Source: an uncultured bacterium (GTDB taxonomy: Bacteria; Planctomycetota; UBA1135; GCA-002686595). Taken from it: a DNA stretch of 64,000 nucleotides. This document shows positions 6,300 through 11,350 of the stretch, piece after piece. Within the stretch, counting starts at the first letter, position 1; every line of letters starts with the position of its first letter. The DNA is taken from contig CALSNU010000002.1 in NCBI GenBank assembly GCA_943787795.1, positions 704,001 through 768,000 on the forward strand, read 5' to 3'. The notes under the pieces were generated by a model, which saw only the letters and a program-made list of their open reading frames with translations, did not search any database and was not told the DNA's origin. The translations under genes and the position numbers were made by a program.

Positions 6300-6628
6300 G
6301 GAGGCACTGGGTCGGGGCTTCCCACGCCCAGGGGAGGCGTTGACCTCGAGCCGCTCGCGGGGCGTTGCCTGAGGCGGTGTTGCGGGCGGTGGCCTCGTGT
6401 GAGAGACCATGAGTTGCCGCTGATTCTGTAGTTGGGGACCCCACCCCCTCCATCAATGGGCGCTCGACGGCGTCGGCCATCGACACCTCCGTCTTCTATG
6501 GGGTATTGTGGAAGTACCGCGGCCTCATTCGTCCTTCCTTGACGGATGGGTGAGGGGTGGGCGGTGTCGAGGCGTGGCCTCGGTGCCCCGGTCTCTGGTG
6601 CCGCCAGCCCTGCCAGGTCAGGCTTGAT

Positions 6629-7426
6629 ATGGATCAGCCTTCGAATTCGGGATCTTCCCATCCGCGCGCGGCGGCCCCCTTGGATGGGGTGGGAGAGGCT
6701 GTAGGAGAGCGGGTTTGTCGGAGTCAGGCTCCGGCTCGGGGGGGCGAGCGGTGGGCCTCCAGGAGGGCGCGGCGGAAGGTCGGATATCGGATCGGGGCCA
6801 CGGTGGGGGCGGTGTTCCTGGCGGTGTTCTCTTGGGGGGACGATGGGCAGGTGCTGGCCAAGGGGCCGGCGAATCCTGGGCATGGGGCGTTGGAGTGCGC
6901 GGACTGTCATGACTCGGCGCCGGGGACGGTGCGGCAGCAGGTCCAGGCGGCGGTGGCCTTCGGGCTGGGGCTGCGGGAGACGGCGCCGGCTATCGGGCGG
7001 CTGCCGGTGACGAATCGGATCTGCCTCGACTGCCACGAGCGGGAGGAGGACCACCACCCCACCCACGTGTTCACCCAGCCCAAGTACGCGGACGAGCGGG
7101 AGGAGATCGCGGCGCACCTGTGCATCACCTGCCACCGCGAGCACAGCGGGCGGCACGTGGAGAATACGGGGCAGTTCTGCGCGACGTGCCACTCGGGGAT
7201 GGAGGTGCGGGAGGATCGGATGACGCCGACCCACGCGGCCCTGGCCGCGGAGGAGCGGTGGGACACCTGCCTGCGCTGTCACGACTTCCATGGGAACCAC
7301 CACCACGAGTGGCCCGAGTCGTTGGAGGAGGCGTTCGGGGGCCGGGAGGTCCTTCGCCACCTGGACAGCGGGACGCCTATGTACGGAGAGAAACGGGAAC
7401 CGGCGCGGACGTCGCGCGACCGATAG
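6629..7426 (+). CDS. Membrane-anchored pentaheme c-type cytochrome
   Basis: Five CxxCH motifs (CADCH, CLDCH, CITCH, CATCH, CLRCH) after one hydrophobic segment; start uncertain. Confidence 0.8.
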   Translation: MDQPSNSGSSHPRAAAPLDGVGEAVGERVCRSQAPARGGERWASRRARRKVGYRIGATVGAVFLAVFSWGDDGQVLAKGPANPGHGALECADCHDSAPGTVRQQVQAAVAFGLGLRETAPAIGRLPVTNRICLDCHEREEDHHPTHVFTQPKYADEREEIAAHLCITCHREHSGRHVENTGQFCATCHSGMEVREDRMTPTHAALAAEERWDTCLRCHDFHGNHHHEWPESLEEAFGGREVLRHLDSGTPMYGEKREPARTSRDR

Positions 7427-7442
7427 GGTCAGGGTGCTTCTG

Positions 7443-8261
7443 ATGTTTGTCCGAGCCTCCGTCCTCCTCGGCCTCGCGGCCCTCTGCATCTACCTCTTCG
7501 TGACGGCGCCGCCGCCGCTGGAGGAGGAGGGCGCGGTGGAGGCCTCGGTGCCCATCGAGGAGGCCTTCGCGGTGCTGGCGCGGGAAAACGACGTCGCGCG
7601 GACGCTGTGGACCCGCGAGATCGTGGGCGCGGGCAAGAAGGTGGGCCTGAGCTTCGCCGAGGACTGGGAGGACGACGGGGTGGACGCGGGGCCGCTGCCG
7701 GCGCTCTTCCTCAAGGAGACCTCCCGGCAGCTCAACCGCAAGCCGGCGCCCCTGGCGCTCTACCTCGGCTCCGACGCGCCGATCGTCGAGGGGAACCGCT
7801 TCGATGGACAGCAGGCCGAGGAGTTCGCCCAGCTGCGCGCCACGGGCGACCCGCGGTTCTTCCTGGACCTCGAGTTCGGACTGCAGACGGCGATGTTCCC
7901 CGACGTCGCCGGCGCGGACGCCTGCGTGACCTGTCACAACGCCCACGTGGACTCGCCCCGGGACGACTGGGCGCGGGGCGACGTGATGGGGGCGACGACC
8001 TGGACCTACCCCGAGGCCACCGTCTCCCTCGACCGGCTCGTGGAGCTGATGGACGTCTACCGCGAGTGCACGCGCCTCGCCTACGAGCGCTACCTCGCCA
8101 AGGCCGCGACCTTCGAGGAGCCGCCCCCCGTGGGGGACCGCTGGCCCCGCGAAGGTGAGCGCGTCCTCCCGAGCGCGGACGTCTTCATGGAGGAGATCGA
8201 GCGCAGCGTCTCCCGGGACACCGTCGCGTCGCTCATCGGCCTCGTCAGGTCGCGCCGCTGA
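7443..8261 (+). CDS. Monoheme c protein, DUF3365/Tll0287-like
   Basis: N-terminal TM/signal; ACVTCHNAH...DWARGDVMGA. Confidence 0.7.
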   Translation: MFVRASVLLGLAALCIYLFVTAPPPLEEEGAVEASVPIEEAFAVLARENDVARTLWTREIVGAGKKVGLSFAEDWEDDGVDAGPLPALFLKETSRQLNRKPAPLALYLGSDAPIVEGNRFDGQQAEEFAQLRATGDPRFFLDLEFGLQTAMFPDVAGADACVTCHNAHVDSPRDDWARGDVMGATTWTYPEATVSLDRLVELMDVYRECTRLAYERYLAKAATFEEPPPVGDRWPREGERVLPSADVFMEEIERSVSRDTVASLIGLVRSRR

Positions 8262-8263
8262 CC

Positions 8264-8746
8264 GTGCGCTACCCCGCCCACACGAGGCGCCCGATCTTCT
8301 GGGGCACCCTCGCGCTGGTCCTCGCGCTGCTGCCCTTCCTGGGCGTGCCCACGCCCGAGGGCCTGCGGTCGATCTACGCGGACCCCACCTACCGCGTGGT
8401 GACCGGCTTCGCCCTCACCGTCCTCGTCGCGTTCCAGTGGGCCTACGTGGTCCTGCGGCGGCGCCCGGGGACCGACGTGAAGGCGCTGCTGGTCCAGCAC
8501 CTCTGGATCGGCGCGGCGGCGCCGATCCTGCTGATGATCCACGCCCTGTCCTCGGGCTACGGCTACCAGGCCGCGCTCGTCTGGGTCTTCCTCGCGAACT
8601 GCGTCCTCGGCCTGCTCAGCCCACGGATCCCCGGGCGTCAGCTCCGAGGGCTCGAGCGGCTCTGGCTCCCGCTCCACATCGCGGGCTCCATCAGCGTCGT
8701 CGCGCTGATCGCCATCCACGTGGTGGTCGTGACGCGCTACCACTGA
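8264..8746 (+). CDS. Multi-TM membrane protein with intramembrane His residues (cytochrome b-like)
   Basis: 4-5 hydrophobic helices; His in QHLWIG, MIHAL, LHIAG, AIHVV; 2 nt after upstream stop. Confidence 0.65.
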   Translation: MRYPAHTRRPIFWGTLALVLALLPFLGVPTPEGLRSIYADPTYRVVTGFALTVLVAFQWAYVVLRRRPGTDVKALLVQHLWIGAAAPILLMIHALSSGYGYQAALVWVFLANCVLGLLSPRIPGRQLRGLERLWLPLHIAGSISVVALIAIHVVVVTRYH

Positions 8747-8978: not shown

Positions 8979-9244
8979 GGGGGCTCCGTCTTGGGGTGGA
9001 TTCGGGTCGGGCCGGGGGCGGGCACGCCTCGCGGGCCAGGGGTCATTACGGGGCAGCCGTGAGGTTATTCACGGCCGGGCAAGGGGTCCCTGGGGGCCGC
9101 CGGGGCCCGCTCGGCCCATTGGGACCGATTGACGCGCATGGTCCGGGCTTCGGTGCGTAGCCTCGATCGAAGCGGGCCGATAGGTGCCGCAGGGGAGCCG
9201 CCCTCCCCGAACCACTCGCCCCCGCGGCGAAGGAGACCCCAGAC

Positions 9245-10432
9245 ATGAACATCCAACGCTCCTCAACGGGGCTCATCGCGGCGCTGGCCGTGGCTGGACT
9301 GACGTCCGCCGCGCTCACGCCCACCGGACCGAACGAGGGCTGGGCTTCATCGAGCATGAAGCACCGCGCCTCCGAGAAGTTCGACTACGTCCTCGGCCAG
9401 GAGAAGTGGCAGTCCCTGGGGGACGAGATCACCCTCTTCGGCCAGGAGTTCCCCGTCGAGATGATCGGCCCCGTGCACTTCGAGATCGACTCGAACGGTG
9501 ACGGCCGGGTCGACCGTGACATCAAGGGTTCCGACGGCTTCGTCGACCTCAAGGGCGAGGACGCCGAGGGCCAGGTCTTCCACTACGGCGTCCGCTTCCG
9601 CAACGACGGCGAGCGCAAGTGGAGCTGGACCGCCTCGGGCGCCATGACCGGCAAGGTCGAGGGGCTCACCATGGCGGTCATCGACGCCAATGCCAACGGG
9701 CGCTACGACGACCTGGGCGTCGACGGCCTCGCCATCGGCAAGGACCGCGGCGCGGGCTACGTCTCCCGCATCGTCAGCATCGACGGCGAGCTCTTCGAAT
9801 TCGAGGTCAACGCCGACGGCACCGAGGTCAAGACCCGGCCCTACACGGGCGAGACGGGCCTCCTCAAGCTCAAGACGATCAAGGGCATCAAGGCCAGCGT
9901 GGTGACGGCCATCGCCCGCCAGGGCAAGGACGTGTCCTTCCAGATCGCCGGCGCCAAGAAGGGCATGGTGGTCCCCGTCGGGGACTACGTCCTCGCGGAC
10001 GCCTTCCTGAAGGGCGGCTCCGAGACGGCGCGGATCCGCATGGGCCGCATGGAGCGGCTGGAGGTGGCCACGGACGGTGAGGTCGAGCTCCAGCTCGGCG
10101 GCCCGCTCGTGGGCGAGGTCCCCACGCCTCGTCTGCAGGACGGCAAGGCGGTGGTCAGCCCCAACGTCCAGGTCTTCGGCTCGCTCGGCGAGGAGTACTA
10201 CGACTTCCAGCCCAAGGGCAAGGTCCCGACCTTCGAGCTCTACGACGCCAACACCGGCAAGCGCCTGCAGAAGGGCAAGTTCCCCTCTGGCTGATGAGGC
10301 TCGGCCCTCCCGGTCACCGTGGGTGTACCGAACCAAACCGACCTTGACGTGATGGTCCTCAGCGAGCGGAAGATGTTCGGCAAGCTGAAGGCGAAACCCC
10401 GCCAACGGAAGGGGCCGCGCTCGCCGCGCTGA
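9245..10432 (+). CDS. Secreted protein; conventional stop at 10294, proposed read-through of TGA-TGA (10292-10297) as two selenocysteines to stop at 10430-10432
   Basis: SD AAGGAG, signal peptide, Ca-binding-like DSNGDG and DANANGRYDD; 44 open GC3-rich codons and a hairpin follow the TGA pair. Confidence refers to the extended form; the 9245-10294 part is solid. Confidence 0.6.
10298..10343 (+). promoter_or_regulatory. Candidate bacterial SECIS element
   Basis: Upper stem CGGT-CACC-(GTG)-GGTG-T-ACCG at 10311-10330, starting 13 nt after the second TGA; outer pairing GG.TCGG with CCGA.CC. Confidence 0.55.
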
Positions 10433-10799
10433 CGGCTCCACCGATCCCCGCCGGGTCGGGGACCCAGGAATCGAGAGAGGCCCCGCCCAGCGACCACTTG
10501 GCGGGGCCTCTCTCGTCGTTCCAATGGACCGGCGGACAAGAGGTCCAAGGGCGCCATTCTGTGCGGCAGCGGGTCCTTGGGTGAATAGGAGGATGGGAGT
10601 AACGGGCGGGGCGCGGCCCAGGGAAGGGCCGCCGACGCCGGGTTGACCTGGGGCTGGAGAGGAAATGCCAAGCCCGCAGAGCTCGGAGTCCCATGATTAC
10701 GCCCGGACGCCGCACAGTCCAACCACGAGGAGTAGCGGGCGCCCGGTGGGGGACATTGGCTTCGAGGTGGGCCTTGGGCCGTGGAGGGACTCGACTCAG

Positions 10800-11350
10800 G
10801 CGAATCCAGTTGTGGCTCGGGGCATGCGGGCGCCAACGCCGGGCGCCGACTCCCGGGGCTCGCCGCTCAGGCTGAGGTCGAGGAGGATCTCCCGCGTCGC
10901 GAGCGGGTCCGAGATCGTGGTGACGCGATGGCGGCCCCCGCGACCCTTGGGGTATCGCAGCACGTCCGCCGCGAAGGTCCGACGGAGGAGCTCGGCCCAG
11001 CTATGCGCCCTGCCCGAGCGCAGGGATCGCCCTCGCCGACGTCCCGGTGCCGCGGGGAACCGCGCGGCACGGCGGCATCGCGCGGTGGCGACGAGAGGGC
11101 GAGAACGCCGAGGCACGCCCACCGGTGCTGCCGCGGGTGGGGGACCAAGGCGACGAGCCGCTAGAGGAAGGCGAGAGGGGGGTCGAAGGCGAAGGCTCGC
11201 GCGCCGTCGCGGCGGACGGCGAGCTGGCCTTGCGCGAGGGCGGGGCAAGCGACATTGCGCCCGGGGCGTTTGAGCCGAAGGCCTTCCTCGGCCTCGAGGT
11301 GGATGGCCGCGTGGAGGGGGTCCCGGCCGAGCTTCCATTGAACTCCTCAG
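10800..11350 (-). mobile_element. Degraded IS91-family-like transposase remnant
   Basis: Minus-strand SWAELLRRTFAADVLRYPKGRGGRHRVTTISDPLATREILLDLSL resembles the C-terminal W..LL.R.F..DVL.CP.CGG region with the Cys lost; boundaries approximate. Confidence 0.55.

Follow-up and report, generated by a model that had tools for sequence, protein, structure and literature searches.

The window analysed here, a stretch of 64,000 nucleotides from an uncultured member of the Planctomycetota, carries a gene that probably encodes an exported, all-beta selenoprotein of 395 residues, as judged from its sequence and that of its relatives. Selenocysteine (Sec, U) would be inserted by SelB at both of two consecutive TGA codons through a single hairpin, giving a predicted vicinal Sec-Sec redox centre. 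By comparison of sequences, the family to which this gene (hereafter the query) belongs is a real, uncatalogued selenoprotein family.

Gene structure and coding evidence

The open reading frame consists of 349 codons followed by TGA at 10292-10294 and TGA at 10295-10297 (codons 350 and 351), and then by 44 further open codons. The features of the region are listed below.

9230..9235, plus strand: ribosome-binding site, AAGGAG
9245..10432, plus strand: full gene, 395 amino acids if both TGA codons are Sec (ATG at 9245, final TGA at 10430-10432)
9245..9319, plus strand: likely cleavable signal peptide, residues 1 to about 25, no lipobox Cys (by eye in the query and 30 aligned homologues)
9335..9853, plus strand: N-terminal all-beta domain, residues 31-203 (pLDDT 94)
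9854..10099, plus strand: middle beta-sandwich, residues about 204-285 (middling match to 4ecn, Z 6.6, rmsd 3.4, 82 residues aligned)
10103..10402, plus strand: C-terminal Ig/FnIII-like beta-sandwich, residues 287-386, with the site in a loop (best match Z 7.7, rmsd 2.9, 86 residues aligned)
10292..10297, plus strand: TGA-TGA, predicted Sec350-Sec351 within P-S-G-U-U-G (sequence and homologue alignment)
10298..10429, plus strand: 44-codon extension, GSALPVTVG...GPRSPR, conserved at the protein level, with a basic low-confidence tail (homologues and AlphaFold)
10311..10330, plus strand: SECIS-type hairpin starting 13 nt after the second TGA, apical G at 10319
10473..10514, plus strand: strong G+C hairpin 3' of the true stop, a possible terminator, without a U-run and not called by the scan

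The G+C content at codon positions 1/2/3 is 0.65/0.43/0.95 in the gene body and 0.68/0.48/0.86 in the extension, which is of the coding type; the DNA past the true stop has 0.64/0.75/0.70, which is not. A preliminary description of this DNA had reported the tandem TGA with 44 open codons behind it, had noted that the third-position bias persists in the extension, and had expected standard gene calling to truncate the gene. All of this is borne out, and the public databases carry the query as a protein of 349 amino acids. The 395 predicted residues include no cysteine. The same description had cautioned that a wbpO-like gene in the window ends in TGATGA as an ordinary stop, as it does (615-620; its frame closes eight codons later), and this ending recurs in 16 of the genome's 2075 coding-like ORFs that terminate in TGA. 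Since, in addition, the energy of the hairpin is no better than that of shuffled sequences (see below), the sequence of this gene alone is suggestive only. The site is bridged by contigs from three public runs, with the TGAs unchanged among the differences listed, which makes an assembly error unlikely. Runs containing the query DNA are mostly marine or estuarine metagenomes; contigs from RNA libraries over the query are shallow and cover intergenic DNA as well, and so do not attest transcription.

Homologues and variation at the site

We examined 135 loci, taken as best matches and enriched for cases with two TGAs or with none, so that the motif counts are not frequencies. Removal of 11 duplicates and of 15 loci by a motif rule (two cut by contig ends, four Cys-stop-Ser, one Cys-Cys-Ser and eight distant loci without the motif) left 109 distinct loci, in which the site reads CU in 67, UU in 19, SU in nine, TU in four, UC, CC and GU in three each, and SC in one; the SU, TU and GU cases are mostly CxxU. 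TGA is found at the site in 105 of the 109, TAA or TAG in none, and Trp at neither position, while the true stops vary (TGA 56, TAG 32, TAA 18 and two off the contig, in 108 loci). The alignment past the stop that the preliminary description had called for is obtained: homologues continue through C-TGA, TGA-TGA, TGA-C or C-C, the downstream sequence is conserved, and in the UU clade the extension is conserved as protein. Among 85 single-Sec genes (L132 was left out as distant), 83 have a Cys next to the Sec or two or three residues before it, the exceptions being L114 and L133. As the query has no Cys, its first TGA stands at the place of the partner Cys.

Full-length Cys-Cys homologues exist (GGCCGGG and alike). 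A protein library yielded 212 representatives at E ≤ 1e-30. Of the 150 best, the majority stop at the site; close representatives that are full-length are mostly Cys-Cys. Profile matches occur in 111 of 401 genomes of the phylum at E ≤ 1e-20, and in 93 of 151 genomes of the order at E ≤ 0.001, many of the latter weakly and through a longer paralogue. Ten metagenome loci, largely overlapping known clades, comprise seven UU, one UC, one CU and one in which the site is not covered. The query genome itself has a Cys-Sec paralogue (C1:989293-990453, L051:4303-5457), with Cys-TGA and a homologous extension and likewise truncated by standard calling, and a distant paralogue of 730 amino acids (C3:432286-434478, L160:2287-4479), whose site has neither Cys nor Sec and whose N-terminus is extended by a part that looks helical; long forms of this kind are frequent across the order. 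The distant homologues, together with L114 and L133, lack the pair, indicating that the fold does not need it. NCBIfam 20.0 has no family for the query or 29 homologues (best E 0.031 over the 30 members), Pfam gave nothing above cut-off (only EF-hand_5, E 0.21), and all that the ESM Atlas returned were hypothetical clusters from Planctomycetota, in one of which 38% of the members carry GEVED.

The SECIS-type hairpin

The hairpin has a G-U-G apical loop and a bulged U; counted from the starts of the first and the second TGA, its loop G is at 27 and 24 nt, respectively. With a minimum free energy of -10.2 kcal/mol, it agrees for both codons with the bacterial consensus model in the legend to Fig. 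2 of PMC13188914 (loop of 3-9 nt, G[G/U] at the loop start, spacing of 16-37 nt, MFE ≤ -7.5 kcal/mol). Of the structure first described, the inner hairpin with its G-U loop and bulged U stands, whereas the longer outer stem was rejected, as it folds differently among homologues. Folding energy was also rejected as proof of a SECIS: in four windows it is not above chance relative to shuffles (z -0.12 to -0.88). A similar hairpin is found in 11 of 399 ORFs ending in TAA or TAG.

It is through conservation and covariation, not energy, that the hairpin stands above chance. When rows are anchored on the loop G, 103 of the 104 Sec genes have a Watson-Crick combination at the stem pair -3:+5 (GC 43, AU 38, UA 15, CG 7), against a mean of 34.6 and a maximum of 49 in a shuffle control (n=2000) that ignores relatedness; the 3' base of this pair is mostly at a synonymous position. 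In three relatives with about 60% protein identity, the hairpin differs at 1-2 of 24 nt and the next 19 codons at 13-18, with the protein pattern kept. The three Cys-Cys genes have no G-U or G-G loop. The Cys-only member L094 retains a perfect hairpin, showing that the protein sequence itself favours part of it.

Hairpin register and the repeated origin of Sec-Sec

The register of the hairpin follows which codon is TGA, across independent lineages. Genes with Sec at the second position have an offset of 10 (loop G 27 nt after the start of the TGA) in 81 of 82 cases, 79 called by script and two by eye, the remaining gene having an offset of 11. All three UC genes have an offset of 9, that is, a hairpin one codon closer; UU genes are divided between offset 9 (12 genes, 11 by script and one by eye) and offset 10 (seven genes). 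Overall, of the 22 genes with TGA as the first codon, 15, including the query, have the hairpin shifted one codon closer, as against none of the 82 without a first-position TGA. The shifted register appears in separate branches, namely the clade of the query, L071, L083 and L124.

Trees built with the two motif residues masked place Sec-Sec in several lineages, where it arose repeatedly, about seven to eight times. UU needs eight changes on a FastTree of 108 rows; first-position TGA also needs eight, of which seven are forced by strong branches (34 chosen rows, mixture model), and a test on 32 rows rejects one common origin for first-position TGA (p-AU 7e-14). The wider clade of the query (15 rows) contains 13 UU, two UC and no CU members; TGA-TGA has therefore persisted along long branches, even though a single base change would restore Cys.

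Selenocysteine machinery and other candidates of the genome

The genome (4.7 Mb, 85% complete) has all four genes that the preliminary description had proposed to look for: selA, selB and selD score above cut-offs, and tRNA-Sec (selC) was found at 69 bits in the genome search. Its selD itself contains an in-frame TGA. All 80 of 80 carriers of the gene have selA, but so do 62 of 64 genomes from a set mostly without the gene; co-occurrence with selA therefore does not discriminate and was dropped as evidence. In other, unverified Sec candidates of the genome the loop G lies 23-24 or 26-28 nt from the TGA; the best-scoring SelD hairpin lies at 36 nt, outside 24-27.

Overall, the genome seems rich in candidate exported selenoproteins. 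A second candidate TGA-TGA gene is found on the minus strand of contig C5 at 150650, with a signal-like leader, UU-GGG and 688 open codons, and its hairpin G is at 28 and 25 nt. Several contigs carry additional hairpin-bearing Sec candidates, among them WUAGC, RUGPC, TUVVC, CHYU, PWUGWC, YIUICM, EYGUGGG and VWUPG.

Protein architecture

AlphaFold2, run with 30 sequences and with Sec modelled as Cys, gave an all-beta model (mean pLDDT 88), in agreement with the earlier view of a non-thioredoxin protein; a thioredoxin alpha/beta fold with the motif at a helix N-terminus is not found. Residues 1-29 have pLDDT below 50, and from the predicted signal peptide the protein is likely exported. The N-terminal domain has two conserved Dx[DN]xDG-type loops (82-90 and 147-155), which are likely Ca2+-binding sites. 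Searched alone, this domain has a best structural match of Z 4.9 and no clear relative, which does not show a new fold. The C-terminal domain resembles Ig/FnIII domains at a middling level, with many tied matches and none at Z of 8 or more. The strands predicted after the site (357-360, 367-375 and 379-385, pLDDT 78-92) correspond to the further beta-strands anticipated for the extension, and in the model all three belong to domain 287-386, so that a stop at either codon would leave this domain incomplete. Foldseek with the whole model returned nothing at E ≤ 0.001; when solved structures were searched by sequence, antibody light chains were the only matches (best E 0.0022). The fold matches are middling and reveal no function.

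Proposed mechanism and alternative explanations

We consider it very likely that one hairpin recruits SelB twice and that translation runs on to 10432: the hairpin would serve the first UGA from 27 nt and, once the second has entered the A site, the latter from 24 nt. That a single SECIS-type element could serve two UGAs had been put forward in the preliminary description, and is supported by the machinery, the TGA/Cys exchange, the covariation, the register and the repeated origin of TGA-TGA. The first Sec would replace the resolving Cys, which is retained in almost all single-Sec relatives. The pair would then sit in the C-terminal Ig-like domain, on a loop flanked by Gly, and cycle between a diselenol and a diselenide in an eight-membered ring, exchanging electrons with other exported proteins, as in the G-C-U-G centre of thioredoxin reductase. 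This chemical part of the proposal, drawn from analogy, we somewhat favour; that CU, UC, UU, CC and CxxU interchange at the site speaks for a redox pair of the two-electron type. It is fairly probable, on a wider scale, that uncultured Planctomycetota routinely make exported vicinal-diselenide proteins, with one SECIS for two successive codons, Sec-Sec selected at least seven times in the family, the hairpin moved by one codon to suit, and an N-terminal domain that perhaps has a fold without a solved relative.

Both UGAs could be read as Sec and the pair nevertheless form a soft-metal site (Hg, Cu, Ag or a cofactor metal) in place of a cycling diselenide. CU motifs are indeed present in the MerB-like SaoL and in HgcA (PMC13188914, Table 1; 10.1101/2022.07.06.499078), and the middling fold matches include superoxide reductases (Z 6.5-6.7), which are metal-binding domains of Ig-like fold. 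We regard this reading as unlikely, because the motif interchanges as described, CxxU being a usual oxidoreductase spacing, because the invariant columns hold no further conserved His or Cys ligand, and because the recurring neighbours include no metal-resistance genes. The possibility that only the first UGA is efficiently decoded, so that the main product ends in ...G-U and the full-length protein is a minor, selenium-dependent species, appears improbable. The extension is conserved in the UU clade and supplies three strands of the domain; TAA or TAG at the second position would serve equally and is never seen; seven UU genes have the other register, and other Sec candidates of the genome have their hairpins at a distance of 24 nt. 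These points have to be set against the position of the query hairpin, which is at the usual family distance from the first TGA and not from the second, and against a 1993 result of Chen, Fang and Inouye, in which tandem UGAs before the E. coli fdhF hairpin were reportedly decoded at a much reduced level. Partial termination at the second UGA is likely, and it is compatible with insertion of Sec at both codons.

Two further explanations dispense with one or both Sec residues. Reading of one UGA by a near-cognate tRNA (Cys or Trp), giving in effect a Cys-Sec product, would take a change of one base from TGC or TGT to TGA, and two tRNA-Trp(CCA) genes are called in the genome; yet TGA is a common true stop here, Trp is absent from both positions in the homologues, and the UC genes have Sec at the first position with the hairpin moved by one codon, all of which makes this very improbable. 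Least credible of all is that TGATGA is an ordinary double stop, or the gene a decayed one, with the extension as a remnant: the frequency of TGATGA among ORFs of the genome and the 349-residue database entry would fit, but the motifs of the homologues, the register, the covariation, the modelled strands and the repeated origin of TGA-TGA all stand against it.

Relation to known systems

The proposed decoding shares with the fdhF-type SelB/SECIS system of E. coli a UGA followed by a hairpin within the ORF, G-U at the start of a small loop, a spacing within 16-37 nt for both codons and the selA, selB, selC and selD genes; the query differs in having one hairpin for two consecutive UGAs. Mammalian thioredoxin reductase has a vicinal C-terminal G-C-U-G centre, and the insect enzymes have S-C-C-S. 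Similarly, the pair here is vicinal and flanked by Gly, and the commonest site in the present family is G-C-U-G or S-C-U-G, with natural Cys-Cys counterparts. The query, however, is not homologous, lacks the flavin domain, places the pair in an internal loop of an Ig-like domain of a probably exported bacterial protein, and belongs to a family with Sec-Sec and Sec-Cys variants, so the likeness would be one of chemistry only, a resemblance of motifs. The N-terminal domain of DsbD is an Ig-like periplasmic domain with a redox Cys pair; as an exported Ig-like domain with a two-chalcogen loop it offers a model for how the protein may work, although it is not among the 50 fold matches listed, which does not exclude it, the query has no Pfam hit, and the spacing is different. 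SELENOL is a diselenide protein of the UxxU type. Among the proteins with this motif in the table of PMC13188914 (Prx-like UxxU, NF041115, FmdB family), two Sec likewise replace a two-Cys redox motif, but with two intervening codons and mostly in thioredoxin folds, whereas the query has none and is all-beta. The bacterial CU selenoproteins (SaoL NF040728, SaoC NF040734, HgcA NF040863, KCU-star NF033934 and MbdU NF045648) have the Cys-Sec dipeptide and the database truncation at TGA in common with the family, which has no NCBIfam match, a different fold and the UU variant.

The motifs given in Table 1 of PMC13188914 (2026, 119 families, some rows without a motif) are CU, CxU, UxC, CxxU, UxxC, UxxU and UxxxxU, and UU is not among them; term searches of the same article found neither the query family by name nor a mention of Planctomycetota. 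In the openly accessible literature that was searched, there was nothing relevant on consecutive, tandem or adjacent Sec, which does not establish absence from print.

Because Sec insertion in bacteria is sensitive to how far the hairpin lies from the UGA, consecutive Sec would not be expected. The spacing adaptation seen in this family makes the spacing tolerance of SelB and its re-use directly testable, and could guide the production of proteins with several Sec residues. Natural Cys-Cys, Cys-Sec, Sec-Cys, Sec-Sec and CxxU forms on one scaffold also provide a ready series for the question of selenium versus sulfur. A vicinal diselenide has a low potential, and for a natural one, if true, it has to be asked by what it would be reduced outside the cytoplasm. 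The family is widespread in Planctomycetota and is mis-annotated, as seen in the truncated database representatives.

Genomic neighbourhood

In 22 of 46 neighbourhoods (the paralogue clade, with one UU gene, L197, included) the gene precedes that of a 770-aa TPR protein, and downstream are found a 490-aa gene (18), MoxR (16), DUF58 (13) and BatA/vWA-type genes (17). The CU paralogue of the query genome heads such an operon, with the 770-aa TPR protein, MoxR, DUF58 and vWA genes and a 2237-aa protein. Unlike this clade, which heads MoxR-DUF58-vWA (Bat-like) operons, the clade of the query stands alone: the operon is absent around the query, and nothing in the neighbourhood is conserved beyond close kin. 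Upstream (6557-8746) are genes for a multihaem cytochrome c with paired CXXCH, a haem protein like Tll0287 and a small membrane protein like cytochrome b; these genes are common only to near relatives. The protein may have a role in maturing exported proteins or keeping them reduced; an oxidative-stress role of Bat proteins is, as stated in PMC3557215, not supported in Leptospira biflexa. The exported 770-aa neighbour (L051:5728-8028 and 21 homologues) has an invariant N-terminal Cys and a TPR segment, AWxHLLSAAFG, that is highly conserved; it also has a weak thioredoxin region of the Omp28-like type, without CxxC.

Shorter homologues directly precede selD-selA or selA in all four such regions examined, with selD-selA in three genomes of one family and selA-selB in another. 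In the former (L156-L158) the short homologues (CU, CVGU) are situated between a MutL/GlmL-like gene and selD-selA, and two of these regions have a second selD-like gene after selA. In the latter (genome G526, L159:1482-2558 and 6462-7529), two EYG-TGA-G genes flank selA-selB. Downstream of the query, repeats precede a stretch on the minus strand at 10796-11000 that we take to resemble the end of an IS91-type transposase.
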